Positions 1 to 15,159 of a stretch of DNA of 64,000 nucleotides are shown here, one piece after another. The DNA comes from Candidatus Euphemobacter frigidus (GTDB lineage Bacteria > Auribacterota > Erginobacteria > Erginobacterales > Erginobacteraceae): the NCBI GenBank assembly GCA_030765805.1, contig JAVCDH010000091.1, positions 19,047 to 83,046 of the forward strand, given 5' to 3'. The position numbers and the translations under genes were made by a program. The notes beneath the pieces were generated by a model that saw only the letters and a program-made list of their open reading frames with translations, made no database searches and had not been told where the DNA came from. Each line of letters opens with the position of its first letter. Position 1 is the first letter of the stretch.

Positions 1-132
1 TACTTCGCGATCGTTAAGATCTTCGGCGAGAAAGGGAAGAAGAAGAAAGCCGGAGTGATCGCGATGGAGAAGGCCCTGGCTCGGGAAGAACTGGAGTACG
101 AGGCCGAGGAGCACATGGCTGGAGATATGTAA
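1..132 (+). CDS. C-terminal fragment of an unidentified protein (partial, runs off window start)
   Basis: Open frame from position 1 to TAA at 130-132 (...AGVIAMEKALAREELEYEAEEHMAGDM*). No recognisable domain. A small perfect hairpin ccccgataaatcgggg follows at 157-172. Confidence 0.3.
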   Translation, partial: YFAIVKIFGEKGKKKKAGVIAMEKALAREELEYEAEEHMAGDM

Positions 133-207
133 TTCTAAATTTACGAGCTCCGATAAACCCCGATAAATCGGGGCGGAGGCTGGGCCGGTTAATTTAGAAG
201 TGGCTCC

Positions 208-1527: not shown

Positions 1528-1673
1528 ATTTCCCTCGGGGGAAATTTAAAAAAACTTTCTTGTCACTCCGTCTTCCATATTCTGACCTCCGACTTTCGAT
1601 CGATGATTGACAATTGGGCAAGGGATTTTTTAAGATAGCGGAGTATCATCGAAATTGGGAGAAGAAAGAAAAA

Positions 1674-2723
1674 ATGCCGGAGGGAGACAGAAGCCGCGTC
1701 TCCCCGGAGGTCTTCGGGCTTCCGGTGGAGGAGATCAAGGCCGGGTTATATTCGGATAAGTACTTCGTCCGTTCCGGGGAGATCCTGAAGAGAGAAGGCC
1801 ATCATCCCCGGGTGTTGATGCAGGTCTTCGCCCGTAAACGGGGGATCATCTGCGGGATGGATGAGGCAATCGCAGTCTTGAAACTCTGCGCGGAGAAGCC
1901 GGAGGAGCTCGTCATCCACGCTCACTTCGACGGCGATCCTTTTGAGCCGATGGAGACGGTGATGACGATTGAGGGGGATTACTCCACCTTTGCCTACCTG
2001 GAGACGGTCTACCTGGGGATAATCGCCCGGGGTTCGGCGGTGGCCACCGCGGTCCGGGAAGTGGTGGAGGCGGCGGAGGACAAACCCATCCTCTTCTTCC
2101 CGGCCCGGTTTGACGGGTACGGTGCCCAGCCCCGGGACGGGTATGCCGCTCATATCGGCGGAGCCTTCGGGGTCTCCACCGACGCTCAGGCCGGGTGGTG
2201 GGGCGGCAGCGGCCTGGGAACCGTTCCCCACGGACTGATTGCCGCGTATGGGGGAGATACGGTCAAGGCCACCCTCGCCTTCGACCGGCAGATGCCGGAA
2301 GAGATTAAACGGATTGCCCTGGTTGATTTCGAGAACGACTCCGTCCGTACCTCATTGGAAGTGGCCCGGGCCCTGGGAGAACGCCTCTTCGCGGTCCGGC
2401 TTGATACCGCCTCCGATCTCCGGGACGTTTCGGTGGTTTCCGATTCAGAAGATTCTTACGGGGTCTGTCCGGAGCTGGTATGGAATGTCCGCCGGGCTCT
2501 CGATGAGAACGGTTTTAATCATGTCAAGATCGTTATCAGCGGGGGTTTCACAGCGGAGAAGATCCGGCGGTTCAGTAAATTACAGGTCCCCTTCGATATA
2601 GTTGGAGTCGGCTCAGCGCTTCTCCAGACCCAGATTGATTTTACAGCTGACGTAGTAATGGTCGATGGCAAACCCTGCGCCAAAGTCGGTCGAGAAGTTA
2701 GATTTCACAAGGATCAGAATTGA
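1674..2723 (+). CDS. pncB: nicotinate phosphoribosyltransferase (archaeal/Thermus-type NAPRTase family)
   Basis: The tool ORF starts at a TTG at 1614; ATG at 1674 (MPEGDRS...) is more likely. Motifs match archaeal-type NAPRT: EEIKAGLYSDKYFVRS, IEGDYSTFAYLETVYLGIIARGSAVATA, FAVRLDTASD, ISGG, DVVMVDGKPCAKVGR. Confidence 0.8.
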   Translation: MPEGDRSRVSPEVFGLPVEEIKAGLYSDKYFVRSGEILKREGHHPRVLMQVFARKRGIICGMDEAIAVLKLCAEKPEELVIHAHFDGDPFEPMETVMTIEGDYSTFAYLETVYLGIIARGSAVATAVREVVEAAEDKPILFFPARFDGYGAQPRDGYAAHIGGAFGVSTDAQAGWWGGSGLGTVPHGLIAAYGGDTVKATLAFDRQMPEEIKRIALVDFENDSVRTSLEVARALGERLFAVRLDTASDLRDVSVVSDSEDSYGVCPELVWNVRRALDENGFNHVKIVISGGFTAEKIRRFSKLQVPFDIVGVGSALLQTQIDFTADVVMVDGKPCAKVGREVRFHKDQN

Positions 2724-2747
2724 CAAACTCGGGCCGAATTGAACGCG

Positions 2748-3350
2748 ATGAGCGATAATGAGTCTAAAAAATTGGCTGATAAAAAGGATGATTTTGAGCT
2801 GGTCCGCGCGACCCGAAAAGGCGACAGGGAAGCATTCGGAGAACTGGTGCGGAAGTACCAGGGGAAGATCTACTCGCTTGCCTACGGTATGGTCGGCAAT
2901 CCAGCCGCCGCCGACGATCTGGCCCAGGAGATCTTCCTGAAGACCTACCGGAATATCAAGAAGTTCCGGTTTAAGTCGAGTTTCTACACCTGGCTCTATC
3001 GGATTGCCCTCAACACGGTTATTACGCGCCGGAAGAAACTTCGGGAAGATAAGCATCTGGAACTTAAGCCTCAGATCCTGGATATCCAGGGGAGCCCGTA
3101 TCTCCCGGCCCGGCTCCAGGGGGAGAAGGGGGACCGGGCGATGACCCGAAAGGAGCTGAGACGTGATATCCGCCAGGCGTTGGAGACACTCTCCGATAAG
3201 CACAAGGCGGTTGTGGTCATGCACGATATTGAAGGTATTCCTCATAATGATATCGCCGGGATTATCTCCTGTTCGGAAGGTACCGTCAGGTCGCGACTTC
3301 ATTACGCGCGCCGCCGACTCCGCGAGCAACTGGCCAACTGGCTGGAGTAG
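2748..3350 (+). CDS. RNA polymerase ECF sigma factor (sigma-70 family, sigma-E-like)
   Basis: Region 2 motif LAQEIFLKTYRNIKKF..FYTWLYRIALNTVI and region 4 HTH DIAGIISCSEGTVRSRLHYARRRLREQL. The tool start is a TTG at 2739; ATG at 2748 preferred. Confidence 0.85.
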   Translation: MSDNESKKLADKKDDFELVRATRKGDREAFGELVRKYQGKIYSLAYGMVGNPAAADDLAQEIFLKTYRNIKKFRFKSSFYTWLYRIALNTVITRRKKLREDKHLELKPQILDIQGSPYLPARLQGEKGDRAMTRKELRRDIRQALETLSDKHKAVVVMHDIEGIPHNDIAGIISCSEGTVRSRLHYARRRLREQLANWLE

Positions 3351-3371
3351 AGATATAAATGATGTGACGCT

Positions 3372-3923
3372 ATGCTCTGCAAGCAATTTAAAAAAAATGT
3401 CTGGGATTTTTTAGACGGTCGGCTGGCCGGTCGACCGGCTGATTTATACTCCGCCCATCTTAAAGACTGCCCCCGGTGCCGGGATACTCTGGCTCGGGCC
3501 CGGAGGCTGCTTGAGCTTTTGAAGGACGAATCGGTTCCGTTGCCTCCAGCCGCTTATCGGGATTCATTCTGGCCGCGACTGAGAGAGAGAATATCCGCCG
3601 AAGGCCGGCCCGCCCGCCCCCGATTCGTGCTTCGGTTCAACCCTCTTTCTTATGCCGCCATAGGGGCCGCGGCCGCGGCTCTCGTTCTCTGGATCTCGCT
3701 CCGGGAGTCTCCATCACCTTTTTTCCGGCCAATGGAGGGGAGAAGGGCCGGTCGTCCAGCGAATTTTGCCATGGCTATTGCCGGCCCGACCGCCGGGAAG
3801 GACGCACCGGAGGTTGATTACATCTCCGGGCGGTCCGGAAGCGTTGGAGGAAGAGAAAGAGCCGGTACTGATTATATCCTTCCCGGTGCCACCGGGAGTT
3901 GTGGCGGCCGGTTTGAAGTGTAG
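3372..3923 (+). CDS. putative zinc-finger anti-sigma factor (membrane-anchored)
   Basis: Immediately downstream of the ECF sigma gene. N-terminal HxxxCxxC-like motif (HLKDCPRCRD) typical of zf-HC2 anti-sigma factors, followed by one TM helix (YAAIGAAAAALVLWISL) and an extracytoplasmic tail. Confidence 0.55.
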   Translation: MLCKQFKKNVWDFLDGRLAGRPADLYSAHLKDCPRCRDTLARARRLLELLKDESVPLPPAAYRDSFWPRLRERISAEGRPARPRFVLRFNPLSYAAIGAAAAALVLWISLRESPSPFFRPMEGRRAGRPANFAMAIAGPTAGKDAPEVDYISGRSGSVGGRERAGTDYILPGATGSCGGRFEV

Positions 3924-4082
3924 GCCTTCATTAACTCTCCCGTCTCTGACGGGGGAGTTTTGCTTCTGTCGACCTTCCTTCGGCTTTGCTCAGGATCTTC
4001 GAAAAGGTTGATAGCTACGGCATTTTTGTACTATATTTTTGTAGTTGCCCCGTTGGACCGGGCTAATTTATGAGGAGGTTGA

Positions 4083-5249
4083 ATGAATAAGACACTGATA
4101 GTGACTTCCGCGGCACTCTTGCTCCTGGGCCCGATTTTCATACGACCCGGAATAACCCAAGAGAGATCGTTAATCTCCCAACTGGAAAAGGAGACAGTAG
4201 AGATCGTGCGTCGTTGCGGGCCGGCGGTGGTATCGGTGACCACGGAGCCGGTCTATCCCCACTGGTGGGATAACCTGAAAGGAGAAGAACTGCCGGCCTG
4301 GATTGAAGAGTTTTTAAAGAGTGATCTCGGGAGTCGCAAACGACGCTCCACCGGGGCCGGTTTTCTTATCAGTTCCGATGGGAAGATTTTAACCACGGAG
4401 AGTGTGATAGGCCGGGCCCGCCAGATTACGGTTGCTCTGGAAGACGGCCGGGTTCTCCCGGCCCGGGTGTTGGGAAAGTCCCCGGACTTCAATATCGCGT
4501 TACTGAAAGTTGATGGGAAGGACTTACCCTGTCTCTCCCTGGGTAACTCGTCCGCGGCGCAGGGCGGCTCCTGGGTGATCGCCCTGGGCCGGCCGTTTGG
4601 TCTGGCTACCAGCGCCTCCTGGGGGATTGTCAGTGGGTTGGGACGCGCGGGCTTGGGGATCGCTCCCTACGAGAAACTTATGCAGATCACCGCGCCGATT
4701 AACCCGGGCGACAGCGGCGGGCCGATCCTGAACTCCCGGGGGGAGGTGATCGGGATTATTGCGGCCAGTTTTTCCGGGTACCGCGAGTTTGAATTTGACT
4801 GGGACTTTATTCGCCGCTTTCACCGCGCTTTTCCTGATTCCCCGGGAATATCTCCGGGGTCATTCTTCCAGAACAGCCAGGCCTATGGGGTGGGCTTTGC
4901 CATCCCGATTGATCTGGCCAGGGAAGTTATCGCCCACCTTTCGAAAAACAAAGGTTTCAGCCGGGGTTGGATCGGTGTTTACCCGAAGGCTCTAACTGGA
5001 AAAAAGGGGGTGGCGGTTACTGAACTCTCCCCGGATGGTCCGGGCGCCCGGGCCGGCCTACGGGGAGGAGATATCATTAGCAGCGTGAACGGCCAACCGG
5101 TCGATTCGCCGCGGAGCCTTCAGAAGATGATTCTCTTCTTGCCGGCCGGGGAGACGATTGACATGAAGATAATGAGGGAAGGGGAGATCATGACGTTCCC
5201 GGTTGTGGTTGGAGAGAAGTCCGAAGGTGGTAAGGGAGAACGTCCGTGA
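4083..5249 (+). CDS. htrA: HtrA/DegP-family periplasmic serine endoprotease with C-terminal PDZ domain
   Basis: Strong SD (gaggagg) 7 nt upstream of the ATG, signal peptide, catalytic-serine motif GDSGGPILNSRGEVIGI, PDZ-like C-terminus (GVAVTELSPDGPGARAGLRGGDIISSVNG). Confidence 0.85.
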   Translation: MNKTLIVTSAALLLLGPIFIRPGITQERSLISQLEKETVEIVRRCGPAVVSVTTEPVYPHWWDNLKGEELPAWIEEFLKSDLGSRKRRSTGAGFLISSDGKILTTESVIGRARQITVALEDGRVLPARVLGKSPDFNIALLKVDGKDLPCLSLGNSSAAQGGSWVIALGRPFGLATSASWGIVSGLGRAGLGIAPYEKLMQITAPINPGDSGGPILNSRGEVIGIIAASFSGYREFEFDWDFIRRFHRAFPDSPGISPGSFFQNSQAYGVGFAIPIDLAREVIAHLSKNKGFSRGWIGVYPKALTGKKGVAVTELSPDGPGARAGLRGGDIISSVNGQPVDSPRSLQKMILFLPAGETIDMKIMREGEIMTFPVVVGEKSEGGKGERP

Positions 5250-6175
5250 AGAGAAGAGGATTTTCCATGTTAGGGTTGGCCGGCTTGCTTTTCTTCGTCA
5301 TCATCGGTCCGGCCGCAGCCCGCACTATTCCCCGGATTACGGCCACGCTCGATAAAGACCGGGTAGCAGTCGGAGACACCATTCTCCTCACGATATCCGC
5401 CGCCTGGGCCGGTGAGGCCTCCGAGTTTGTATTTCTCCCTCCCCAGCCTCCGGAGTTCCGGGGTCTGGAAATGACCGGCTCCGCCCAGAAAAGCGTGGTC
5501 TATCGAACCGATGGGAAGCTGCACCAGGTTTGGGAATACCTCTTTACCCTTAAAGGGGAAGATAAGGGCACCGCCCGGGTAGGGGTGGTACGGATTCTCT
5601 ACCACCGTCACGGAGAGGAAGAGGTACACTCGTTAACTACCGAACCACTGGAGGTAACGATCTTCTCGGGAGGAGTGGCCTTCTTCTCATCGATCGGTAG
5701 TGCTCTTCTCACGATCGGAGTGGTAATGGTGGCAGTTATCATCATCGTTGTCTATGTGAGGTGGACCATCCGACGCTATAAAAATAAATCGAACGAAGTC
5801 ATCGCGGATTACGTTAAAAATCTGGAAGCGGAGAGTCTCAAGGAATTAGACCACCTCCGGAAGCTTAAAGTCCAGGGGAATATCGACGGATATCTGGAGG
5901 GGATCTGGAAGATACTGGCCGACTACCTGGAGAAGAAATATACCATAACCATCTCGCCCGAAAGCTTTCGTGAGGTGCTGGAGGGAGAGAGGGCATCGGC
6001 CCTCTCGGAAGAAGCGGCAGCGGAACTGGCCCGGATTCTGAAGGTGTTGGAAGAAAGCCGGTTTGGAAGCTACCGGGCGGAGAACCGGGGACCGGATGAT
6101 ATCTTAAAACGAGTCTATTCATTCATTGAATCACAACAATCGCAAACCAAAGGAGAACGGAATTATGAGCATTGA
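5246..6175 (+). CDS. membrane protein with BatD-like N-terminal domain and DUF4381-like C-terminal domain (Bat-cluster accessory paralogue)
   Basis: Signal peptide, beta-rich N-domain resembling the BatD N-terminus (RITATLDKDRVAVGDTILLTISA), one TM helix, cytoplasmic helical C-domain. Same architecture as the gene at 8703-9647. GTG start overlaps the htrA stop (GTGA). Confidence 0.5.
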   Translation: MKRRGFSMLGLAGLLFFVIIGPAAARTIPRITATLDKDRVAVGDTILLTISAAWAGEASEFVFLPPQPPEFRGLEMTGSAQKSVVYRTDGKLHQVWEYLFTLKGEDKGTARVGVVRILYHRHGEEEVHSLTTEPLEVTIFSGGVAFFSSIGSALLTIGVVMVAVIIIVVYVRWTIRRYKNKSNEVIADYVKNLEAESLKELDHLRKLKVQGNIDGYLEGIWKILADYLEKKYTITISPESFREVLEGERASALSEEAAAELARILKVLEESRFGSYRAENRGPDDILKRVYSFIESQQSQTKGERNYEH

Positions 6176-7154
6176 CATTCAGGAGATCAACGAGAGAGTT
6201 AAGGTTGCCGGCGAGTTTGTTGAGAAGATTCGGGCGGAGATCGGCAAGGTCATCGTAGGACAGACTTACCTGGTCGACCGGCTCTTGCTGGGTTTACTGG
6301 CCAACGGGCATATTCTAATTGAAGGTGTTCCCGGTCTGGCCAAGAGCATGTCGGTCCGGGTCCTGGCCCGGGCCATCAATACCTCTTATCAGAGGATCCA
6401 ATTCACGCCCGATCTTCTGCCGGCAGACCTCCTCGGCACCCTGGTCTACAACCCGAAGACCGGCGAGTTCACCACCAAGAAAGGCCCGATCTTTTCTAAT
6501 ATCATTCTGGCCGATGAGATCAATCGGGCCCCGGCCAAGGTCCAGTCGGCGCTGCTGGAAGCGATGCAGGAACGCCAGGTCACTATCGGCCGGGAGACCT
6601 TTCCCCTCTCCGAGCCGTTCATGGTCATGGCTACCCAGAACCCGATCGAGCAGGAAGGGACCTATCCACTCCCGGAGGCTCAGGTGGACCGCTTCATGCT
6701 GAAGCTGGTTCTGGATTACCCTGATAAGAAGGAAGAGAAGGCGATCATGGACCGGATGGCGGTAACCAACTATGAACTCCAGGTTCAGCCGGTTGTCGAA
6801 CCGGAGGAGATTATCAAGGCCCGCTCGGTCGTGGACATGATCTATATCGACGAAAAAGTCAAAGATTACATCCTCGATCTGGTCTTCGCCTCCCGGGAGC
6901 CGGAACAGTACGGGCTTAAGATAGGGGATTTTATCCAGTACGGGGCTTCCCCCCGGGCTACCATCTATCTAACAGTTGCTTCCAAGGCCTACGCTTTTAT
7001 CAAAGGTAGAGGGTATGTAACTCCCCAGGATGTCAAGACGATCGGTCAGGATGTCCTCCGGCACCGGGTGATCGTCAGCTACGAGGCGGAAGCGGAAGAT
7101 CTCACCTCCGAGGACCTGATCCGGAAGATCTTTGATCAGGTGGAAGTGCCTTGA
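6165..7154 (+). CDS. moxR: MoxR-family AAA+ ATPase
   Basis: Walker A GHILIEGVPGLAKS, and VLARAINTSYQRIQFTPDLLPADLLG, ILADEINRAPAKVQSALLEAMQE. SD aaggag upstream of the ATG at 6165 (the tool start at 6126 is a TTG). Confidence 0.9.
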   Translation: MSIDIQEINERVKVAGEFVEKIRAEIGKVIVGQTYLVDRLLLGLLANGHILIEGVPGLAKSMSVRVLARAINTSYQRIQFTPDLLPADLLGTLVYNPKTGEFTTKKGPIFSNIILADEINRAPAKVQSALLEAMQERQVTIGRETFPLSEPFMVMATQNPIEQEGTYPLPEAQVDRFMLKLVLDYPDKKEEKAIMDRMAVTNYELQVQPVVEPEEIIKARSVVDMIYIDEKVKDYILDLVFASREPEQYGLKIGDFIQYGASPRATIYLTVASKAYAFIKGRGYVTPQDVKTIGQDVLRHRVIVSYEAEAEDLTSEDLIRKIFDQVEVP

Positions 7155-7155
7155 T

Positions 7156-7311
7156 GGTGACTGGGGACTGGTGACTGGTGACTGGGGATTGGTGACTGGG
7201 GACTGGGGACTGGTGACTGGGGACTGGGGATTGGTGACTGGGGACTGGGGACTGGTGACTGGGGACTGGGGATTGGTGACTGGGGACTGGGGATTGGTGA
7301 CTGGGGACTGG
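7156..7311. repeat. tandem heptamer array (units GTGACTG / GGGACTG / GGGATTG, about 22 copies)
   Basis: Directly visible periodicity of 7 nt. It begins 2 nt after the moxR stop codon. In one frame it reads as the repeated peptide GDWGLVT (tool ORF 7132-7329), which is not a real gene. Confidence 0.9.
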
Positions 7312-7368
7312 ATAGCAAAGTTATACTAGTTTTTGACTAGTCGGATACAAAAGCAAAGGAAAACCTAA

Positions 7369-7734
7369 GTGGTTGGTATGAGGTCACATGAGGATTTAGA
7401 GGTTTGGAAGAGATCAATTGATTTAACTGTTCGAATTTATCGAATTACCGCCGGATTTCCTGATTCAGAAAAATTTGGTTTATCTTCTCAACTGCGGAGA
7501 GCAACAGTCTCTGTCAGCAGCAATATCGCAGAAGGAGCAGCGCAAGGAACTACAAAATCTTTTATAAATTTTCTGTATATTTCTCGAGGATCTATATCTG
7601 AAGTAGGCACCCAAGTTGAGATAGCAAGGAGATTACGGCTCATTGATACCGAAGTACATAAAGAATTGAAGGGAGAGATTATTATTATTGGAAAGATGCT
7701 TACTAATTTAATCAAACGTTTGAAACAAAGTTGA
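7369..7734 (+). CDS. four-helix-bundle protein (23S rRNA intervening-sequence protein / Avd-like family)
   Basis: 121 aa. Family-typical motifs EDLEVWKRSIDLTVRIYRIT, FGLSSQLRRATVSVSSNIAEG, FLYISRGSISEV. The local sequence is markedly AT-rich compared with its flanks. Confidence 0.8.
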   Translation: MVGMRSHEDLEVWKRSIDLTVRIYRITAGFPDSEKFGLSSQLRRATVSVSSNIAEGAAQGTTKSFINFLYISRGSISEVGTQVEIARRLRLIDTEVHKELKGEIIIIGKMLTNLIKRLKQS

Positions 7735-7780
7735 TATCTAAGATTTTGCGAATAAGTTGATTTATACTTTTTGTTGAGAA

Positions 7781-7818
7781 ACCAGTCCCCAGTCACCAAT
7801 CACCAGTCCCCAGTCACT
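7781..7818. repeat. heptamer array, reverse-complement orientation of the 7156-7311 array (CCCCAGT / CACCAGT / CACCAAT units)
   Basis: accagtccccagtcaccaatcaccagtccccagtcact. Together with 7156-7311 it forms an inverted pair bracketing the four-helix-bundle gene. Confidence 0.85.
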
Positions 7819-7827
7819 ATACATACC

Positions 7828-8706
7828 ATGCTTCCCAAAGAAATAATCAAGAAGATCCAGCGGATCCGGATCCGGACCAACCGGATAGTCAGCGATGTCT
7901 TCTCTGGAGAGTACCAGAGCGTCTTTAAAGGGCGGGGGATGGAGTTTGACGAGGTGCGGGAGTACCAGCCCGGCGACGAGGTTCGGGATATCGACTGGAA
8001 CGTGACCGCCCGCTATGGGCGCCCGTTTATAAAGAAGTATGTGGAAGAGCGGGAACTCACCGTTATGCTTCTGGTGGACGCCAGCGCGAGCAGCCGGTTC
8101 GGAACCCGACAAGAGTTCAAAAGTGAACTGGCGGCGGAGCTCTGCGCGGTCCTGGCCTTCTCCGCGATCCGGAACAAGGACAAGGTGGGGTTGATTATCT
8201 TCACCGACCGGATCGAGAAGTTTGTCCCCCCGGCCAAGGGAAGCCGCCATGTCCTGCGGGTGATCAGGGAGCTTCTCTACTTCAAACCGGAGGGCGAGGG
8301 AACCGATATCGAGCTGGCCCTCGGCTACCTGAACCGGGTCACCCACCGCCGGACCGTCACCTTCCTGGTCTCGGATTTCAAGACCGCCGGCTACGACAAA
8401 GCCCTGAAGATCGCCAATAAACGCCATGATATTATCTCAGTCATGATCAGCGATCCCCGGGAGATGGAACTGCCCCCGGTCGGGCTGATCCGTCTCCGGG
8501 ACGCGGAGAGCGGGGAAGAGATCCTGGTTGACAGCCGGGATGAGAGGACCCGTCACCTTTACCGGGAAAGAGGCCGGGAAGTAGAAGATGAGATTCTCAG
8601 GATCTTCCGATCAACCGACGTGGATTGCATTCGGGTCAGCACCGATCGCCCATACGTACAGGCCCTGATGCGGTTCTTCCACCGCCGGGAGCGGAGGATG
8701 CATTGA
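7828..8706 (+). CDS. DUF58 domain protein (MoxR-partner, vWA-like)
   Basis: Classic DUF58 motifs GEYQSVFKGRGMEFDEVREYQPGDEVRDIDWNVTAR and MLLVDASASSRFG. ATG at 7828 preferred; the tool start at 7771 is a TTG and would translate the heptamer array. Confidence 0.85.
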   Translation: MLPKEIIKKIQRIRIRTNRIVSDVFSGEYQSVFKGRGMEFDEVREYQPGDEVRDIDWNVTARYGRPFIKKYVEERELTVMLLVDASASSRFGTRQEFKSELAAELCAVLAFSAIRNKDKVGLIIFTDRIEKFVPPAKGSRHVLRVIRELLYFKPEGEGTDIELALGYLNRVTHRRTVTFLVSDFKTAGYDKALKIANKRHDIISVMISDPREMELPPVGLIRLRDAESGEEILVDSRDERTRHLYRERGREVEDEILRIFRSTDVDCIRVSTDRPYVQALMRFFHRRERRMH

Positions 8707-9647
8707 AGAAATTTATTATATTGATTGTGTTTTTATTCTTCGGGTTTGGTCTGCCCATTGGCCGGGCGGAGGAAGTTCCCCGTCTGGAGAGTTTTCTGGA
8801 CCGGGATGTCGTAACGGTCGGGGATCTGATCCGCTACACGCTGAAAGTGGTGGCGGAGAAGCCCGTGGAAGTTATCTTCCCTCTTTATGATGATGGGATG
8901 ATCGGCGATTTTGAGATCGGGGAGGCCGGCGGGGGGGAGAGGAAGGGGGAGAATGAGAAGATTTGGGAGAGGCGGTACCTCCTCCAGGGGTTCGAGACAG
9001 GCGACTTCACGCTCCCCGGAGCAGAAGTTACATTACGGTTCCCCGATGGGGAGGAGGAGAAGCTGCAGAGTCCCCCCCTGGGAATTACCGTCAAGAGCCT
9101 GCTCGAACCTTCGAAGGCCGAAGCGGATATCAGAGCCATCAAGCCTCCGGTCGCCCTGCCGGTCTCTTACCGGTGGGTGTTGTACGCTACAGCCGCCCTT
9201 CTTATCATTATCGCCCTGACTTTTTTTTTGATAAAGAAGGTTTTTATCAGGAAGGAGAAAATTATCCCGCCGCCGCCTCCCCGTCCCGCCCATGAGATCG
9301 CCTATGAACAGTTGAACCGGATCAAGGATGATAACCTCCCCGCCCGGGGATTGATCAAGGAATATTATACCCGGATCTCTGACACGGCTCGTCATTACCT
9401 GGAGAACCGCTTTGGATTGCGGGCGCCGGAGCGGACTACCGAGGAGTTTCTGAATGATATGGCTTCGACTGATTACCTCTCAATTAGGCAGCAGGACCTG
9501 GTAGGTGACTTCCTGGCCGAGTGCGACCAGGTTAAGTTCGCCCGTTACGGCCCCACCGAGAAGCAGATAGAGGATGTTTATGAAGCTGCCATCCGGCTCG
9601 TGGATGAGACTAAAATTTTTTCGGAGAAAAATATTAATGGGGTTTAG
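8703..9647 (+). CDS. DUF4381-like membrane protein of the Bat cluster (with BatD-N-like domain)
   Basis: Probable TTG start at 8703 overlapping the DUF58 stop (TTGA), with GGAGG 8 nt upstream. Signal peptide KKFIILIVFLFFGFGLPIGRA, TM helix, Pro-rich linker PPPPPRPAHEIAYEQLNRI and helical C-domain. Start uncertain. Confidence 0.5.
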   Translation: MKKFIILIVFLFFGFGLPIGRAEEVPRLESFLDRDVVTVGDLIRYTLKVVAEKPVEVIFPLYDDGMIGDFEIGEAGGGERKGENEKIWERRYLLQGFETGDFTLPGAEVTLRFPDGEEEKLQSPPLGITVKSLLEPSKAEADIRAIKPPVALPVSYRWVLYATAALLIIIALTFFLIKKVFIRKEKIIPPPPPRPAHEIAYEQLNRIKDDNLPARGLIKEYYTRISDTARHYLENRFGLRAPERTTEEFLNDMASTDYLSIRQQDLVGDFLAECDQVKFARYGPTEKQIEDVYEAAIRLVDETKIFSEKNINGV

Positions 9648-10641
9648 CTTTCACAATCCGGCTTTATTGTTTCTCTTGTTCCTGGTTCCGATTTATCTAT
9701 TCTTTTACTGGCGGCAGCAGAAAGGAGTGGCGATCCGATTCAGCTCGATCCGAACTCTGAAAGAGATCGGTCCCTCACCGACGGTGGTCTTCCGCCATAG
9801 CGTGGCCGTATTTCGGAGCCTGGCCATCATCTTTCTGGTCCTGGCCCTGGGCCGCCCCCAGAAAGGCGTGCGGGAGACCCGGATCACCACGGAGGGGATA
9901 GATATTGTACTGACCGTGGATGTCTCAACCAGCATGCTGGCCGAGGATTTCACCTGGGGGGGGAAACGCTATAACCGCCTGGAAGTGGCCAAGCGAGTGA
10001 TCGCGGATTTTATCCGCGAGAGGAGCGGGGACCGGATCGGAATGGTGGTCTTCGCCGGCCAGGCCTATAGCCAGTGCCCCCTGACGGTTGATTACGGCGT
10101 TTTGCTGGAGCTCCTCGACAAGGTGCGAATCGGGATGATCGAGGATAGGACCGCCATCGGGACCGCTATCGCCACCAGCCTGAACCGGCTCCGGGAGTCG
10201 GAAGCTAAGAGCAAGATCATAATCCTTCTGACCGACGGTGAGAACAATGCCGGGAAGATCGATCCTCAGACCGCGGCTAAGATGGCCGAGACATTGGAGA
10301 TCAAGATCTACACGATCGGGATCGGGAGCAAGGGTCCGGTCCCCTATCCGGTCCGTGATCCCTGGACCGGGCAGTTTGTCTATAAGCAAGTCGTGATTCC
10401 GCTCAACGACGCGAGTCTCCAGGAGATCGCTCGGACTACGAAAGGCGAATATTTTCTGGCTTCGAACACGAAGATGCTGGAGAGAATCTTCGCTACTATC
10501 GATGAACTGGAGAAGACCACCGGAGAGACGGTCATCTATACGGAATATAACGAATTATTCCCTTATCTCATCGCTCTGGGGGTGCTCTCTCTTCTGGTCG
10601 ACATCACGCTCAGAAAGACCCGTTTCCGGAGGCTTCCATGA
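9637..10641 (+). CDS. batA: von Willebrand factor A domain protein BatA-like
   Basis: Two N-terminal TM helices, then vWA MIDAS motif DIVLTVDVSTSM, LLTDGENNAG, IYTIGIGS, and a C-terminal TM helix. ATG at 9637 with GGAG upstream. Confidence 0.85.
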   Translation: MGFSFHNPALLFLLFLVPIYLFFYWRQQKGVAIRFSSIRTLKEIGPSPTVVFRHSVAVFRSLAIIFLVLALGRPQKGVRETRITTEGIDIVLTVDVSTSMLAEDFTWGGKRYNRLEVAKRVIADFIRERSGDRIGMVVFAGQAYSQCPLTVDYGVLLELLDKVRIGMIEDRTAIGTAIATSLNRLRESEAKSKIIILLTDGENNAGKIDPQTAAKMAETLEIKIYTIGIGSKGPVPYPVRDPWTGQFVYKQVVIPLNDASLQEIARTTKGEYFLASNTKMLERIFATIDELEKTTGETVIYTEYNELFPYLIALGVLSLLVDITLRKTRFRRLP

Positions 10642-11672
10642 GGTTCGGCGCTCTTAACCTGATCTGGCTCTTCCTGCTCCTCCCGATCTTGGCTATTCTC
10701 TTCCGTTGTGCATGGCTTCGCAAACGGCAGGCCGAGAATCTGTTCGCCGATCGTCCCCTCTGGGAACGGTTGAGGATCGGGGTGAGTGACTTCAAGGTCA
10801 GCGCCCGGCCGGTCTTGATCCTGGCGGTTACGGCGCTTCTGCTCTTCTCCCTTCTCCAGCCCCGGTGGGGCTACCACTGGGAGGACGTTACCAGGCTCGG
10901 AATCGACCTGATTGTCGCGGTGGATACTTCCAGGAGTATGCTGGCTGATGACGTCAAACCGAACCGCCTGGCCCTGGCCCGACGTGAAATTGAGGACCTG
11001 GCCCACCTTTTGAAAGGGGACCGGATCGGCTTGATCGCCTTCTCCGGGAGCGCATTTACGCTTTGTCCCCTCACCCTCGATTACGGCGCTTTCCGGATGT
11101 TTGTTAACGATCTTTCCGTAACCACCATCCCCCGGGGAGGGACCGATATTTCCGCGGCCATCTTGAAGGCGATAGAGGCCTTTGGCGAGGGCCCGGGCAA
11201 GCACAAGGCACTCCTGATTATATCCGACGGCGAGAACCTGGCGGGCGATTACCAGGCGGCCGCCGAGGAGGCGAAGAAGAAAGGGGTAAAGATCTTCACG
11301 ATCGGGATCGGGAGTCCCGAGGGGATACCGATAAAGCTGACCACCCCGGAAGGGACGTCATATCTCAAGGACCGGGAAGGGAATATCGTGGTCAGCAAGC
11401 TGGACGAAGCGGTACTTCAGAAGATCGCGGTGGAGACCGGGGGGGCCTATCACCGGGCGACCACCTCCGGCCTGGAGCTCGAGTTGATATATCGGGACCG
11501 GATTGCCAGGATGGACAAGAAAGAACTGGAAAGCACCCGGAAGAAGGTATATGAGCACCGTTTCCAGTGGCCCCTGGCCGTTGCCCTCCTTCTCCTGGTG
11601 CTGGAATCGATTATGGGGGAGAGAAAGTGGAAGGGGTTGAGATGGTGGTTTTTATTGAGGGAAAAAGAATGA
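10638..11672 (+). CDS. batB: von Willebrand factor A domain protein BatB-like
   Basis: ATGA overlap with batA. vWA motifs DLIVAVDTSRSM, LIISDGENLAG, IFTIGIGS; C-terminal TM helix. Confidence 0.85.
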   Translation: MRFGALNLIWLFLLLPILAILFRCAWLRKRQAENLFADRPLWERLRIGVSDFKVSARPVLILAVTALLLFSLLQPRWGYHWEDVTRLGIDLIVAVDTSRSMLADDVKPNRLALARREIEDLAHLLKGDRIGLIAFSGSAFTLCPLTLDYGAFRMFVNDLSVTTIPRGGTDISAAILKAIEAFGEGPGKHKALLIISDGENLAGDYQAAAEEAKKKGVKIFTIGIGSPEGIPIKLTTPEGTSYLKDREGNIVVSKLDEAVLQKIAVETGGAYHRATTSGLELELIYRDRIARMDKKELESTRKKVYEHRFQWPLAVALLLLVLESIMGERKWKGLRWWFLLREKE

Positions 11673-12466
11673 ACGTCCAACGTCCAACGATTTTGAACAT
11701 CGAACGTCGAACATCCAACATCCAACATCGAACCCTATATCTTCTGATTGCCGCTCTTGTGCTGGTTAATCTCGGCCTGGGGAATCCGGGGGGTTCCCTG
11801 GTTAAAGAGGGAAATCGGCTTTTCAAGGAGGGAAAGTATGACCAGGCCCTGACCAAGTATAACGAGGCCCAGTTAGAGCTTCCCGATTCGTCCGATATTT
11901 ATTACAATATAGGTGATGTTCAGTACAAGAAGAGTGACTATGAAAAAGCGGCTTCGCTCTTCCAGAAAGCGATAGAATCCAAAAATCGTACGCTTAACGC
12001 CCGGTCCGGATACAACCTTGGCAATACTCTCTTCCGGGAGGGAAACTTTGATGGTGCCGCCTCTGCCTATAAGGCATCTCTTAAACTGAACCCGGAGGAT
12101 TCGGACGCGAAGTATAACTACGAACTTGCCCGCTGGAAACAGAAAGAACAGGAACAACAACAGCAGCAGGAACAGAAGCAGGAACAGAAGCAGAAGGATC
12201 AGAAGGAGAAAGAGAAAGAGGAACAGGAGCAGGAAGATAAAGATCAGAAGGACCAACAGCAGGAACGGAAGGAAGAAGAGGAGCAGCAGCCTCAACAGCA
12301 AGATCAGGAACAGAATCAAGAGCAGCAGCAGCAGCAGCCCCAGGAGATGAACCAGGAAGACGTGGAGAGACTCCTTGACGCCATGCTCTCCGAAGAAGAG
12401 GATCAACGGGGGGAGATGATGGAACAGAGGGAGGGGGAGACGCCGGAGGTTATCAAGGACTGGTAA
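11669..12466 (+). CDS. batC: TPR-repeat protein BatC-like with Gln/Glu/Lys-rich low-complexity C-terminal region
   Basis: ATGA overlap with batB. TPR units (GNRLFKEGKYDQALTKYNEAQ...), followed by a long QEQKQEQK tract. The N-terminal 21 codons are encoded by a heptamer repeat array. Confidence 0.7.
   Translation: MNVQRPTILNIERRTSNIQHRTLYLLIAALVLVNLGLGNPGGSLVKEGNRLFKEGKYDQALTKYNEAQLELPDSSDIYYNIGDVQYKKSDYEKAASLFQKAIESKNRTLNARSGYNLGNTLFREGNFDGAASAYKASLKLNPEDSDAKYNYELARWKQKEQEQQQQQEQKQEQKQKDQKEKEKEEQEQEDKDQKDQQQERKEEEEQQPQQQDQEQNQEQQQQQPQEMNQEDVERLLDAMLSEEEDQRGEMMEQREGETPEVIKDW
11672..11742. repeat. heptamer tandem array (GAACGTC / CAACGTC / ATCGAAC / ATCCAAC units) inside the 5' end of batC
   Basis: aacgtccaacgtccaacgattttgaacatcgaacgtcgaacatccaacatccaacatcgaacc. 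It is in frame, with a total length that is a multiple of 3, directly after the batC ATG. Confidence 0.8.
12120..12400. repeat. low-complexity CAG/GAA/AAG-rich coding tract (QEQKQ... in BatC)
   Basis: Visible triplet-repeat-like composition (cagcagcag, gaacagaag) that generates spurious antisense ORFs. Confidence 0.6.
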
Positions 12467-12467
12467 T

Positions 12468-12500
12468 ACAATTTTTTCTTCAAAAAATTGTAGTTTTAAA
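12468..12500 (+). terminator. palindromic hairpin between batC and batD (possible attenuator or weak terminator)
   Basis: acaatttttt ctt c aaaaaattgt is a perfect 10-bp stem. The T/A runs lie inside the stem rather than after it, so function is uncertain. Confidence 0.25.
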
Positions 12501-12501
12501 G

Positions 12502-14364
12502 ATGAACCACAGATTACTATATTTTTTAATCGTATTCTTTATCTTAACTTCCGCGGTTAGTCGGGCTGATGAGGTCTCTTTTTCGGCGGCGGTTAACCGG
12601 AATAAGATCTCCCTTTCGGACCAACTTATCTATACACTGACTATCGAAGGAGCGCGTGATGGCCAACCGGTCCTCCCCGATATCCCGGATTTCAAGTTCC
12701 TTGGTAGATCGGTCAGCACCCAGTTCTCTTTAATCAACAATCAGACCCGGGTCAGTAAGAGTATTGACTATACCCTGATGCCTATCTCGGCGGGAACATT
12801 CACCATCCCTTCCGCGCGTCTGGCGCACGGGGGTAAGAGCTATACCACCCGTCCGATCAAGGTCATAGTCGTAAAGAGCTCCTTGCCGCCCTCGGCGATT
12901 GCCGTCTCCCGGCCGCAGGATCAAACCACAGATAGTTCCGGCCGGAGAAAGGAGGCGAGCCCTCCGCCGGAATCAGGCAGTCCACTCTTCGTCAGGACAG
13001 AGGTTGATAAGAAAGAAGCCTATGTTAATGAACAGATAACATTGACCTTCAAGCTCTTTTTTCGGGGACTGCGGATCGCTAACCTTAAATATTCACCGCC
13101 GCCCACGATCGGGTTCGTGGAAGAGAACCTTGACGATCAGAAGAGTTACAGCAAGGTTGTGGGAGGGGTGCGGTATGATGTGGTGGAGCTGTCGAAAGCG
13201 ATCTTCCCCATAAGTTCGGGAGAAGTGACGATCGGCCCGGCGGAACTCAGAGGCGATATTATCGTACCCCGTCGCTCCCGAAGTGGGAGTCTATTTGATG
13301 ACTTCTTCAGAGATCCCTTTGGTGAGCGGCAGCCGTTCGCTCTTCGTTCAAAGCCGATCCAATTGATAATTAAACCCCTCTCGCGGGAAGGCAGGCCCGG
13401 TGATTTTAAGGGGGCGGTAGGTGAATTCGGATTTGAGCTCTCCGCCAAACCGACCATTGTCAAGGTTGGCGAGCCGATCACAGTCACGATGAAGGTCACC
13501 GGGGCGGGCAATCTGGATACGGTCACCATCCCGGAGATCCCCTGCGGGGAGGAATTCAAGACATATGTGCCCGAGGTGGAGACGAGAAGAAAAGTTATTG
13601 GCGCGCGGGTAGGCGGAGAGAAGATCTTCAAGCAGGTTATTATCCCGCTCTCGGTCGATCCGAAGGAGATACCCCCTGTATCATTCAGCTACTTCAATCC
13701 CGCGTCCGGCGCGTATCGGACGATAACGGCTAAGACGATCCCGATCACGGTTGAGGCCGCGCCGGATCAGGGGCCGCTCTCTCTGGTGGAAAGTATGGCC
13801 TCCGGTGCCGGGAGGGAGCGGATCCGAATTCTAAAGAAGGACATTCTATATATTAAGGATAATCCCGGGCACCTGACACCTGCCGGCCGATTCTATTATC
13901 AGAGGCCCCTGTACTGGACGTTTCCGGTGATCTTCCTGGCGCTTCTCATTTCAGTCTGGGGTGTCCAGTCACGCAGAGAGAAACTCCGGTCCGACGTCGC
14001 CTACGCCCGGCAGGTGGGCGCCTCCCGGTCCGCGCGCAAGCGGTTCAAAACAGCCCGGGCTCATCTCAGGGCCGGCGACGCGGAGAAATATTACGGTGAA
14101 ATTCACCGGGCGTTTAACCGCTATCTGGGGGATAAGTTCGGCCTTCCGTCCGGAGCGGTCTCAAGCATGGTGGTGAGCGAAAAGTTATCGGCGGCGGACG
14201 TGGGATCGGAGATGATAAATGAGATTGAGTCCTGTTTCGCGGCTTTTGACCTGGCTCGCTTTGCCGGGTCCTCGGCGGATAAAAAGGAGATGGAATCTTT
14301 TCTCCGCCGGGTGGAGAAACTGATCGGCGATCTGGAGAAGGTTAAAATAAAATACGATGAATAA
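12502..14364 (+). CDS. batD: BatD-like oxygen-tolerance protein
   Basis: 620 aa, signal peptide, repeated beta-rich domains, TM helix near residue 470 (YWTFPVIFLALLISVWGV), cytoplasmic helical tail. Conserved position in Bat operon order. Confidence 0.8.
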   Translation: MNHRLLYFLIVFFILTSAVSRADEVSFSAAVNRNKISLSDQLIYTLTIEGARDGQPVLPDIPDFKFLGRSVSTQFSLINNQTRVSKSIDYTLMPISAGTFTIPSARLAHGGKSYTTRPIKVIVVKSSLPPSAIAVSRPQDQTTDSSGRRKEASPPPESGSPLFVRTEVDKKEAYVNEQITLTFKLFFRGLRIANLKYSPPPTIGFVEENLDDQKSYSKVVGGVRYDVVELSKAIFPISSGEVTIGPAELRGDIIVPRRSRSGSLFDDFFRDPFGERQPFALRSKPIQLIIKPLSREGRPGDFKGAVGEFGFELSAKPTIVKVGEPITVTMKVTGAGNLDTVTIPEIPCGEEFKTYVPEVETRRKVIGARVGGEKIFKQVIIPLSVDPKEIPPVSFSYFNPASGAYRTITAKTIPITVEAAPDQGPLSLVESMASGAGRERIRILKKDILYIKDNPGHLTPAGRFYYQRPLYWTFPVIFLALLISVWGVQSRREKLRSDVAYARQVGASRSARKRFKTARAHLRAGDAEKYYGEIHRAFNRYLGDKFGLPSGAVSSMVVSEKLSAADVGSEMINEIESCFAAFDLARFAGSSADKKEMESFLRRVEKLIGDLEKVKIKYDE

Positions 14365-15121
14365 GAACGTCCTGACAGCTGTCGCTATATTCTTGAGTTT
14401 CATTCCCGCGGCACGGGGGGATAGCTCGGAAGAGGAAGTCCCCTCGCTCTTCCGCCAGGCCAATGCCCTTTATGCACAGGGGAGATACACGGAAGCGGCT
14501 GACGAGTACCGCCGGATTCTCCGGGAAGGCTGGGAGAGCGGCCCGCTTTATTACAACCTGGCCAATGCCTACTTCAAAACCGGCAACCTGGGCCGGGCGA
14601 TACTGAACTACCGGAAGGCCTGGAATCTCTCGCCTCAAGATCCCGAGATCAACAAAAACCTGGAGTACGCCCGGGAAGCCCTCCGGGATGATATCGCCGC
14701 CCTTCCTCTTTCTTTATGGACCCGGGTCAAGCGGGCGGTGATCCTTCAGTTTCCTATCGGGGTCTGGATCGGGATCAGTTCGGCCTTTTATTTCCTGACC
14801 GTGCTCTGGCTGATCGCGGTACTGATGATTAAACCCTTGAAGAAGATATCGCCCCCGGTCTGGAAGACGCTCGGGTTCCTCCTGGCGCTCAGTGTCATTG
14901 TGAGCGTGGTCGCTTATAATTACTACCATACCCCCCGGGCGATCATCCTCGACCCCACGGCTACCATCCGTTATGGACCAAAAGAGACTGACGCGGCCGC
15001 TTTCGAGCTTCACGAGGGGACGGAAGTAAGAGTTGTCCGGAAGAAGGATGGCTGGCTTCAGATCTCGCTTCCGGACGGCAAGTCCGGCTGGCTCCCCGCC
15101 GAATCCCTGGGAATCATCTGA
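14357..15121 (+). CDS. batE: TPR plus SH3b-like domain protein BatE-like
   Basis: Overlaps the batD stop. TPR (NALYAQGRYTEAADEYRRIL...YYNLANAYFKTGNLGRAILNYRKA), two TM helices, and a C-terminal SH3-like motif (GTEVRVVRKKDGWLQISLPDGKSGWLP). Confidence 0.65.
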   Translation: MNKNVLTAVAIFLSFIPAARGDSSEEEVPSLFRQANALYAQGRYTEAADEYRRILREGWESGPLYYNLANAYFKTGNLGRAILNYRKAWNLSPQDPEINKNLEYAREALRDDIAALPLSLWTRVKRAVILQFPIGVWIGISSAFYFLTVLWLIAVLMIKPLKKISPPVWKTLGFLLALSVIVSVVAYNYYHTPRAIILDPTATIRYGPKETDAAAFELHEGTEVRVVRKKDGWLQISLPDGKSGWLPAESLGII

Positions 15122-15159
15122 GGGGTCAGTATAATAAGGTTGGAACTGGTCTAAAGAGA

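Follow-up and report, generated by a model that had tools for sequence, protein, structure and literature searches.

A four-helix-bundle gene between inverted heptamer arrays at the moxR-DUF58 junction of Candidatus Euphemobacter frigidus: a putative selfish cassette resembling rRNA intervening sequences

The window analysed here is a stretch of 64,000 nucleotides from a Candidatus Euphemobacter frigidus contig, in which moxR and DUF58 of a Bat operon are separated by a small cassette; all features of this locus lie on the plus strand. The upstream host gene, moxR (6165–7154), encodes an AAA_3 ATPase (Pfam AAA_3, E=6e-65) identical in sequence to a protein assigned by NCBI to this species, and its TGA stop codon (7152–7154) abuts the 5′ arm of the cassette (7155–7311), a tandem array of about 22 heptamers of the types GGTGACT, GGGGACT and GGGGATT with a 21-nt super-period (repeat family D2; Tandem Repeats Finder score 279; 7.5 copies of period 21, or 22.4 heptamers). 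This arm is G/T-rich and contains TGA within its GGTGACT units. An AT-rich unique leader (7312–7377) precedes the cargo, a four-helix-bundle (4HB) gene (7378–7734), which is followed by an AT-rich unique 3′ spacer (7735–7780) that is identical in loci L001 and L002. The 3′ arm (7781–7818) was detected by Tandem Repeats Finder and as the inverted pairs I1–I12, and is composed of five heptamers (5.3 units), AGTCCCC, AGTCACC and AATCACC, the reverse complements of the 5′ arm units. Nine nucleotides separate its end from the ATG (7828) of the downstream host gene, DUF58 (vWA-like, 7828–8706; Pfam DUF58, E=2.6e-82). The two-unit pattern GGKGAYTGGKGAYT matches the window 30 times, compared with 0.44 matches expected from shuffles.

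Array, AT-rich 4HB gene and reverse-complement array are the three parts that a preliminary description had recognised in the insert, and all three lie where it had placed them. The distance between moxR and DUF58, put there at about 670 bp, is 673 nt, compared with 23–25 nt in relatives. The compositional break that it had pointed to is also present, the cargo having a GC content of 0.37 and a GC3 of 0.26 against 0.55–0.59 and 0.72–0.77 in the flanking genes. Its count of about 22 upstream heptamers holds for this assembly, but further assemblies of the same species have 7, 10, 13 or 16 units, and the number is unreliable because the length of the array equals that of assembly k-mers or reads. 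A search of positions 6900–8100 against Rfam gave no family match, and PADLOC matched no defence family.

The ORF at 7369–7734 matches the 23S_rRNA_IVP family PF05635 (E=4.5e-37, 127 bits against a cut-off of 33.8) and TIGR02436 (E=1.1e-36, 125.3 bits against a cut-off of 24). Translation from GTG 7369 gives the 121-aa protein of the preliminary description; this ORF exists, but comparison with homologues indicates that ATG 7378, giving 118 aa, is the more likely start. The segment QLRRATVSVSSNIAEG retains the R, S, N and E of the conserved family motif GxxRxxxSxxxNxxE (PMC3936711), with the first G replaced by Q. The residues that are invariant across alignment A1 are present in the cassette protein, and the family has many invariant polar residues (E31, Q38, R41, S45, S48, N49, E52, E75 and Q79). 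The model of the protein is an up-down four-helix bundle like those of XCC0516 (PDB 2GSC), the closest solved homologue, and BT_0352 (2RLD); the 2GSC crystal contains a pentameric assembly, whereas the cassette protein was modelled only as a monomer. Structure comparison of the model returned no HEPN-like, nuclease or recombinase fold, and only generic helical bundles rank after the Avd-like ones. The 23S_rRNA_IVP/TIGR02436 family comprises 21,340 clusters at 50% identity. We know of no function for it outside diversity-generating retroelements (DGRs), and the one functional precedent for the fold known to us is Avd, which binds reverse transcriptase and its RNA.

The moxR-DUF58 junction is uninterrupted in four related loci (L044, L045, L046 and L051), whose MoxR proteins are 94, 93, 93 and 88% identical to the one encoded here. 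In these empty junctions the 23–25 nt spacer contains GGAGG inside a small hairpin ahead of the DUF58 ATG; in the occupied state no Shine-Dalgarno sequence is found upstream of DUF58. The empty junctions are free of heptamers, and the arrays seen here therefore arrived with or after the cassette. The cassette is an insertion, in the Ca. Euphemobacter frigidus lineage, and the native spacer has been replaced by it and not merely interrupted.

Three further relatives (L047, L049 and L050) have different 4HB cassettes with different heptamer units in the same junction. Their 4HB proteins are 53–61% identical among themselves, compared with 79–96% for MoxR, and the similarities among the junction cassettes do not track those among the hosts. 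We regard this as repeated occupation of one junction. The units of the four junction cassettes are one step apart (TGGGGAC/G/A, TGGGGGA), which makes a single old insertion followed by rapid divergence a less likely alternative. The cassette of the window also occurs in a second context, locus L001, where 481 nt are 100% identical, including, in unchanged order, the five inner units of the 3′ arm, before the sequence passes into an unrelated, rlmN-like gene (best database match 56%). This locus may represent another copy, in the same genome or in a different organism, or else an assembly chimera. Exact-protein look-ups placed the cassette protein in the moxR context and in L001 only, and a 38-mer scan of JGI metagenome contigs gave no further copies of the exact cassette. 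Empty sites, compositional break and recurrence (L001, the junctions of the three relatives and about 100 family members) all favour the foreign insertion cassette proposed in the preliminary description.

Between the downstream arm and the upstream array, complementarity is 87–97% in no fewer than 12 registers. The best predicted RNA duplex of the two arms has 37 bp with one mismatch (−80.4 kcal/mol), and in the predicted minimum free energy fold the arm stem, of 37–40 bp with 93–97% complementarity, encloses the entire insert (z=−4.1). The upstream array has four times the length that this stem requires. Across the family, arm complementarity was scored by the sharing of 7-mers, a permutation test based on duplex folding being confounded by GC content; the two arms of a cassette have 13.6 inverted 7-mers in common compared with 3.6 by chance, and its own partner is the best match in 22 of 48 cases. 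Additionally, the arms co-vary between orthologues: in L023/L026 and L022/L027/L028, the proteins are 72–74% identical and the neighbours are shared, while the arm units differ and each is complementary to its own partner. Templated correction of quasi-palindromes at the DNA level could maintain this complementarity in place of selection on RNA.

GC skew is positive in 24 of 28 5′ arms and negative in 28 of 31 3′ arms. A stop triplet is present in 23 of the 31 5′ arm units against 17.6 expected, a weak excess in hand-picked units (P about 0.02). Shine-Dalgarno mimicry by the G-rich arm was considered and rejected, hybridisation to the 16S 3′ tail being no better for arm units (−4.9 kcal/mol) than for shuffled units (−4.6 kcal/mol), with P≤0.1 in 4 of 34. 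The idea that the protein recognises the unit of its own cassette is not supported: outside orthologues, unit sharing is independent of protein similarity.

The cassette shares its parts with the intervening sequences (IVSs) of bacterial 23S rRNA. The IVS of Coxiella burnetii contains an S23p ORF together with GACAGAT heptamers of variable number, is bounded by a terminal stem of 28 bp and is excised by RNase III, with a cut at the first repeat (PMC4990558). The cargo here belongs to the same S23p/23S_rRNA_IVP family as that of the Coxiella burnetii and Leptospira IVSs, and it likewise lies between terminal inverted repeats predicted to form a long stem around the ORF, with tandem heptamers of variable number in the arms (22 and 5 here; 7–22 upstream across assemblies). 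Both kinds of element measure about 430–700 nt, are patchy among relatives and lie in the sense orientation of the host transcript, which we infer for the cassette (PMC4990558). The two differ in location, the IVSs being found in helix 25 or 45 of 23S rRNA and the cassette between two protein-coding cistrons, and in their arms, which are multi-unit arrays here in place of a 28-bp stem with two to four heptamers. RNase III processing has been demonstrated for the rRNA IVS, whereas for the cassette it would follow by analogy.

The same layout is found across the family. In about 100 cassettes, which come from many phyla, the 4HB gene is surrounded by inverted arrays whose repeats are of short period, in most cases 7 nt. 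Among 33 GTDB loci, arrays were found on both sides in 19, on one side in 12 and on neither in 2; among 54 IMG/VR cassettes the corresponding numbers are 35, 16 and 3. Cassettes in which an array is detectable on one side only make up roughly a third to a half. The cassettes on viral contigs were found by an alignment-based scan, a scan with a single-protein query having given none. Arrays cover 14.3% of the 4HB flanks compared with 1.2% elsewhere, and 9.2% compared with 1.8% in a second set, a density 5–12 times that elsewhere. In annotated plasmids they span the interval from stop codon to start codon between cas6 and cas4, between cmr2 and cmr3 and between RNR genes, and family members are also wedged in the accB operon. 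Between co-directional genes, the 4HB gene lies in the sense orientation in 32 cases and antisense in 4. The standing of this architecture as the standard for the whole family, the equivalence to the rRNA IVS and the repeated occupation of one junction go beyond the preliminary description.

The reading that we favour, with moderate confidence, is that the insert is a selfish cassette of the IVS type, with the 4HB "IVS protein" encoded by its sole gene and inverted 7-nt repeat arrays as its arms, co-transcribed with the operon and made tolerable by the RNA stem that the arms form. The insertion, in the lineage of Ca. Euphemobacter frigidus, put the cassette between moxR and DUF58 of the Bat operon in place of the native spacer of 23–25 nt. 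The cassette would be transcribed by read-through from the operon and have no promoter of its own; a scan of the leader (7312–7377) gave no consensus promoter, and promoter and terminator scans of the whole insert gave neither. In the RNA, the 3′ arm would zip to any of many registers on the longer 5′ arm, and because the arm is built of repeats this pairing would survive slippage. The stem of 37–40 bp is predicted to loop out the cargo and to bring the moxR stop codon and the DUF58 start codon together at the base of the helix. RNase III, by analogy to the Coxiella 23S rRNA IVS, would then cut the stem, which would free a panhandle 4HB mRNA and leave both host messages usable, and it is because they remain usable that the insertion would be tolerated. 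Points against this reading are the surplus length of the upstream arm, the cassettes with an array on a single side, the replacement of the native spacer together with the lack of a target-site duplication, the possible maintenance of arm complementarity at the DNA level, the possibility that L001 is a chimera and the closely related units of the four junction cassettes.

A second reading, rather unlikely in our judgement, places the system at the level of DNA, as for REP/RAYT: heptamer hairpins would propagate, the 4HB protein would bind, maintain or spread them in trans, and the part played by the arms in replication or recombination would be that of hairpins or cruciforms in the DNA. The likeness to REP/REPIN-RAYT systems and MITEs is that a single gene lies between hairpin-forming repeats that are also scattered intergenically, with truncated and cargo-less derivatives. 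In about 465 kb we found 117 orphan arrays, many of them short-loop inverted pairs, and cargo-less hairpins with the unit of the local cassette are common in genomes that have 4HB cassettes, the window itself having five further heptamer sites; the many invariant polar residues of the 4HB family would suit a specific binding or catalytic site, and the arms have a strand polarity that belongs to the DNA, on both strands. However, the unit is independent of the protein, being held in common by L003 and L013 at 34% protein identity and by L050 and L058 at 45%, and structural matches to the fold are confined to Avd-like bundles and include no nuclease or recombinase. The sense bias within operons would also be unexpected for a purely DNA-level element. 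Unlike REP/REPIN-RAYT systems and MITEs, the cassettes have no HUH/Y1 transposase or recognisable recombinase, the only ORF of the present one being the 118-aa 4HB protein, and their arms are tandem arrays in place of a fixed palindrome. A target-site duplication is absent from 30 of 31 cassettes, flanking direct repeats being found in one, and substrings common to the two element ends have a mean maximum length of 5.5 nt, as in the control.

A third reading, which we consider improbable, takes the arrays for slippage-prone simple sequence repeats (SSRs) of the kind found in any intergenic spacer, neither functional nor part of a cassette, with the 4HB gene acquired separately and landing in them or preferring them. 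Heptamers are the most abundant intergenic tandem repeats of prokaryotes and no function is assigned to them in the literature (PMC4692102), a 2018 survey having found "no clear clue" to it (bioRxiv 10.1101/309039). The units GGGGACT and GGGGATT, present here as an intergenic tandem together with GGTGACT, are those of the Nostoc PCC 7120 repeat described by Rehm et al. (PMC4692102). The cyanobacterial STRR, the Xanthomonas GGGAATC repeat and the Beggiatoaceae TAACTGA repeat are also intergenic and of strain-variable length, and convergent inverted pairs number 70 in X. campestris; within the searchable text of these papers, the repeats are treated as free-standing SSRs or G-quadruplex motifs and are not linked to 4HB genes (PMC4692102; PMC4679880). 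In contrast to such free-standing repeats, the arrays here constitute both arms of a gene cassette. The Rehm et al. supplement lists a GGGAATC array (no. 15) at a distance of 6 nt from bccP (XCC0517) that extends over the start of XCC0516 (PMC4692102); since XCC0516 is the 4HB gene of structure 2GSC, this is an independent data point for the cassette layout. Arrays without a 4HB gene in the window and the variable copy number among assemblies would suit ordinary SSRs, but heptamer-free empty junctions, the conserved order of the inner five 3′ arm units in L001, the enrichment of arrays beside 4HB genes and the inverted arms, complementary far above chance and co-varying between orthologues, all argue against them. 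The consistent polarity, G/T on the 5′ side and A/C on the 3′ side, would also be unexpected under random slippage.

We consider it very unlikely that the 4HB gene has a genuine function within the Bat/MoxR operon, such as regulating MoxR-DUF58 or serving as its adaptor, with the arrays as regulatory sequence. The junction is occupied in four related lineages and the 4HB ORF is intact in all of them, but L051 and the closest relatives, with MoxR identities of 94 and 93%, lack the gene, its product has diverged far more than MoxR among the occupied loci, its codon composition is foreign and the same family is found in the unrelated cas6-cas4, cmr2-cmr3, RNR and accB operons. That the locus is the remnant of a DGR with the Avd gene as sole survivor is scarcely credible, as the preliminary description had also held: a PHROG annotated "Avd protein of DGR" does match (E=3.4e-9), but Avd models score below their curated cut-offs (NF033474, 26.2 against 80; PF22296, 24.6 against 40), identity to bAvd in the structural alignment is 10%, no reverse transcriptase is found among the genes up to about 3 kb to either side in L036/L037 (sigma-70, zf-HC2, Trypsin-PDZ, MoxR, DUF58 and BatA/VWA), no template/variable repeat pair is found within 16 kb, the long direct repeats of positions 1–16000 being only the array, a low-complexity coding tract and a vWA paralogue pair, and the empty site is clean, so that the insertion never comprised more than about 670 nt.

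Five further heptamer sites are found in the window. On the minus strand, between two minus-strand genes, a miniature cassette (45119–45255) has inverted GGTTCAC-type arms around a probable N-terminal 4HB remnant (IERSEDIEVWQLAHEV), which gives a weak tblastn match and a local HMM match to profile positions 4–19 (E=0.018 in a search of three sequences). An intercistronic cargo-less hairpin (34796–34908, minus strand, Tandem Repeats Finder) consists of about nine GGGGAAT units and about five inverted ones around a 16-nt loop; the minus-strand ORF upstream of it has its stop codon inside the array, and the unit of the hairpin is the arm unit of the L049 cassette. A solo arm (31659–31723, minus strand), found by Tandem Repeats Finder and by pattern search, has the main-cassette units GGTGACT, GGGGACT and GGTGAAT, the first of which provides the TGA stop of the upstream minus-strand gene, and is followed by an AT hairpin with GGAG and then an ATG. 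These three are decay products: a truncated cassette, a cargo-less hairpin and a solo arm. Tandem Repeats Finder also detected an A/C-rich array of AACGTCC and GAACATC (11672–11733, plus strand), beginning at the stop codon of the vWA gene at 10638–11672, and a short hairpin of GGTAATA/GGGATTA with an inverted copy (21496–21545, no strand assigned). The suspicion that the arrays are ubiquitous filler unrelated to 4HB genes is thus right as to their being common, with five further sites in 64 kb, but not as to their being unrelated, given the 5–12 times enrichment and a probable 4HB remnant at one array-only site.

More tentatively, we suggest that 4HB cassettes and their cargo-less derivatives may form one ubiquitous, unrecognised class of selfish intercistronic elements, of which the rRNA IVS would be the special case residing in rRNA, and that the excess of heptamers (cyanobacterial STRR, Xanthomonas GGGAATC) may largely consist of arms and their remnants. 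The 4HB protein might act on the arm RNA, as Avd does on RNA, perhaps recruiting a polymerase or reverse transcriptase, or protecting the panhandle, for propagation or maintenance. To our knowledge, the questions of where rRNA IVSs come from and what their conserved ORF does have stood since the early 1990s; the rRNA IVS, the 23S_rRNA_IVP/TIGR02436 family and the heptamer excess are three loose ends that may be one phenomenon. The present locus offers a clean natural experiment, a small clade providing the site both empty and occupied, as well as alternative occupants and decay products. 4HB genes within cas, RNR or Bat operons are not to be taken as functional partners there. The cassettes also disrupt short-read assemblies, and many 4HB homologues lie on contigs of 0.5–2 kb.

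The moxR-DUF58 junction of the Bat operon in the window holds a cassette in which a four-helix-bundle (4HB) gene, the cargo, is enclosed by two inverted heptamer arrays. The moxR ORF (AAA_3, E=6e-65) ends in a TGA stop codon (7152-7154), and the 5' arm (7155-7311) is composed of ~22 tandem heptamers (GGTGACT/GGGGACT/GGGGATT) with a 21-nt super-period (TRF score 279); the two-unit heptamer pattern has 30 matches in the whole window vs 0.44 expected. An AT-rich leader of unique sequence (7312-7377) leads into the cargo ORF, which spans 7369-7734 from a GTG or 7378-7734 from an ATG, the ATG being the more likely start by comparison with homologues. A unique 46-nt 3' spacer separates the cargo from the 3' arm (7781-7818), five heptamers that are the reverse complement of the 5' units, and 9 nt separate this arm from the DUF58 ATG (7828). 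The 3' arm can pair with the 5' array in 12 or more registers, at 87-97% complementarity; the strongest duplex is 37 bp long and has a single mismatch (-80.4 kcal/mol), and in the MFE fold of 7140-7840 the arm stem encloses the entire insert (z=-4.1). The preliminary description of the insert is accurate, since ORF calls, TRF, composition and pairing recovered its parts, coordinates, GC contrast and arm complementarity; the compositional break is evident in the cargo GC of 0.37 and GC3 of 0.26, compared with a GC3 of 0.72-0.77 in the flanking genes. In the same fold, the last moxR codons (GGAAGU, 7140-7148) pair with DUF58 codons 2-3 (GCUUCC, 7829-7835) just outside the arm stem, which could be a translational-coupling helix or chance. 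Assemblies of the window's species (L036-L043) carry 7, 10, 13, 16 or 22 upstream heptamers, the sole difference between them, with counts that change by multiples of three units (21 nt), reflecting either true length variation or short-read repeat collapse.

The cassette is an insertion of foreign origin, as had been proposed from the sequence. The window MoxR is identical to an NCBI protein from Candidatus Euphemobacter frigidus (Auribacterota, PVC group), and, going by the identity of MoxR and DUF58, its nearest genomes are those with an empty junction. Uninterrupted junctions are found in the relatives L044 (MoxR 94% identical to the window), L045 and L046 (93%) and L051 (88%), where TTTTTTCCGGAGGAAAAAATTAA separates the moxR TAA from the DUF58 ATG. 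This spacer, an AT hairpin of 23-25 nt, has a Shine-Dalgarno sequence in the loop (GGAGG; GAAGG in L045 and L046), and no heptamers were found in it at any of the four sites. In the window this native spacer is missing and 673 nt stand in its place, with no target-site duplication and no transposase in the cassette. Intercistronic spacers of the lineage are small AT-rich hairpins with a Shine-Dalgarno sequence (GGAG/GGAGG) in the loop, directly before the ATG (L044 3991-4015; window 31628-31657, minus strand, and 9616-9632); one such spacer was replaced by the cassette and another adjoins a solo heptamer arm.

Three more relatives, L050 (MoxR 89% identical to the window), L049 (86%) and L047 (83%), hold different cassettes with 4HB genes at the exact moxR-DUF58 junction. 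In every occupied junction the array begins 0-2 nt past the moxR stop codon, and 0-10 nt separate its end from the DUF58 ATG; all four junctions have TGA or TAG as the stop and lack a Shine-Dalgarno sequence, and the GC3 of the 4HB gene is below that of its flanks. The 4HB proteins of these relatives and the window are only 53-61% identical to one another, their similarities do not track those of the hosts, and the arm units (TGGGGAG/TAGGCAG, GGGGAAT and TAGAGGG/TGGGGGA) all differ from those of the window. We read this as a favoured junction that was repeatedly inserted into, or in which the cassette was replaced. The four arm units are one-step neighbours of one another, so an old polymorphism followed by fast divergence could instead, though less probably, underlie these cassettes.

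The array-cargo-array structure recurs beyond this junction. A contig of 990 nt from a different sample (L001) matches window 7336-7816 with 100% identity, covering part of the leader, the 4HB gene, the 3' spacer and nearly the whole 3' arm, and then runs into an rlmN-like gene absent from the window. This is likely a second genomic context for the cassette; the contig may instead be an assembly chimera, and the closest database relative of its rlmN-like gene is distant (best 56%). The GTDB set comprises 33 loci spread over Bacteroidota, Planctomycetota, Kiritimatiellota, Gemmatimonadota, Proteobacteria, Marinimicrobia and other groups: 19 have arrays flanking the 4HB gene on both sides, 12 have them on a single side and 2 have none, and several apparently distant arrays were found to flank additional 4HB genes. 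An independent set of 54 unique IMG/VR cassettes has arrays on both sides (35/54), one side (16/54) or neither (3/54). Array coverage is 14.3% in the 300-nt 4HB flanks vs 1.2% of remaining sequence in the GTDB set, and 9.2% vs 1.8% in IMG/VR, with a period of mostly 7 but also 8, 9 and 15.

Own-arm inverted 7-mers number 13.6 per cassette vs 3.6 expected, and in 22 of 48 cassettes the own arms outscore those of every other cassette. G and T predominate in the 5' arm (GC skew positive in 24/28), A and C in the 3' arm (negative in 28/31), and the 4HB gene is biased to the sense strand among co-directional neighbours (32 sense, 4 antisense, by crude ORF calls). The arm units differ between orthologous cassettes with the same neighbours and 72-74% identical proteins (L023/L026 and L022/L027/L028), and every one complements its own partner, a pattern of compensatory change and co-variation of the arms. 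No target-site duplication was found at the element ends in 31 cassettes, with one exception, the second 4HB cassette of a Pirellulaceae MAG (L005 330-1430), which has very long arms (~200 and ~350 nt) and a flanking direct repeat of ~27 nt (CCCACAGGMACGAAGTCCGCGCT..CGA) that could be att-like or a target duplication.

Five more heptamer sites are present in the window, all intergenic (5/5), and include decay products of the element. The three oriented sites each separate genes on the minus strand, and transcription meets their G-rich arm first. At 45119-45255, inverted GGTTCAC-type arms surround what is probably a 16-residue N-terminal 4HB remnant, a weak match (E=0.018) that is correctly placed. 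At 34796-34908, GGGGAAT units form a hairpin around a loop of 16 nt. A solo arm at 31659-31723 has the units of the main cassette, and its first unit provides the upstream gene's stop codon; further sites are at 11672-11733 and 21496-21545. Given these five sites and the many short-loop inverted pairs in related loci, built from the unit of the local cassette, heptamer arrays are common in these genomes. The alternative of ubiquitous filler unrelated to 4HB genes therefore holds as to abundance and fails as to relation, the arrays being enriched beside 4HB genes; they resemble arms and leftovers from a 4HB element class.

Earlier surveys described such repeats, among them GGGGA(C/T)T in Nostoc PCC 7120, a unit found in the window cassette, GGGAATC in Xanthomonas (186 sites in X. 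campestris, with 70 convergent pairs) and TAACTGA in Beggiatoaceae, for which no function is known and no connection with 4HB genes was made (PMC4692102, PMC4679880). A 2018 survey ranked tandem heptamers first in abundance among intergenic repeats and reported "no clear clue" as to function (bioRxiv 10.1101/309039). In the Xanthomonas supplementary table (PMC4692102), array no. 15 lies six nt from bccP (XCC0517) and overlaps the start of XCC0516, the crystallised 4HB protein closest to the cargo (X. campestris, 2GSC, E=6.4e-28). In open-access literature text we found no account of array-gene-array organisation as a general feature of the 4HB family. On annotated plasmids of cyanobacteria and Riemerella, 4HB genes lie between cas6/cas4, cmr2/cmr3, two RNR subunit genes and others, and the inverted arrays often span stop codon to start codon; the cas6/cas4 and cmr2/cmr3 cassettes of three cyanobacterial plasmids (L057, L059, L062) look like insertions, not Cas components. 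Zhang and Ye considered a functional link for 18 such genes within cas loci (PMC3936711), for which we favour selfish insertion.

The cargo scores 127 bits against PF05635 (23S_rRNA_IVP; cut-off 33.8) and 125 bits against TIGR02436 (cut-off 24), in a family of 21,340 clusters at 50% identity (E<=0.001), and matched no defence-system model searched. To our knowledge the sole precedent for the 4HB fold is Avd, a binder of reverse transcriptase and RNA. The cargo scores below the cut-offs of Avd-specific models, and the cassette is not a diversity-generating retroelement, as the preliminary description held; membership of the Bat system was also rejected.

The cassette is best read as an IVS-type element outside rRNA. 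The 23S rRNA intervening sequence of Coxiella burnetii (428-444 nt) has an ORF of the 4HB family, terminal inverted repeats forming a 28-bp stem, 2-3 full tandem GACAGAT heptamers in strain-dependent number, and RNase III cleavage at the first repeat (PMC4990558). The same parts make up the window element, which instead sits between two mRNA cistrons; Rfam families gave no match to it. In its most likely mode of working, the operon promoter would read through the cassette, in which no promoter or terminator consensus was found, and the arms would zip together as a long RNA stem, repeat-built arms keeping their complementarity after slippage. The stem would loop out the cargo, so that the moxR stop and DUF58 start meet at the base of one helix. 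By analogy with rRNA IVSs, RNase III may then cleave the stem, which would leave the host genes expressible and set the 4HB message free.

Elsewhere in the window, GC drops from ~0.54 to ~0.40 over the last 16 kb (47500-64000), perhaps marking a genomic island or another genomic compartment. At 27345-27611, 12.9 tandem copies of a 21-nt unit (CGCCGGGGCTGCTTCTTCCTT, TRF score 345) probably represent a 7-residue repeat within a coding region, and a Q/E/K-rich low-complexity stretch (12137-12370) lies inside the TPR (BatC-like) ORF at 11567-12466.
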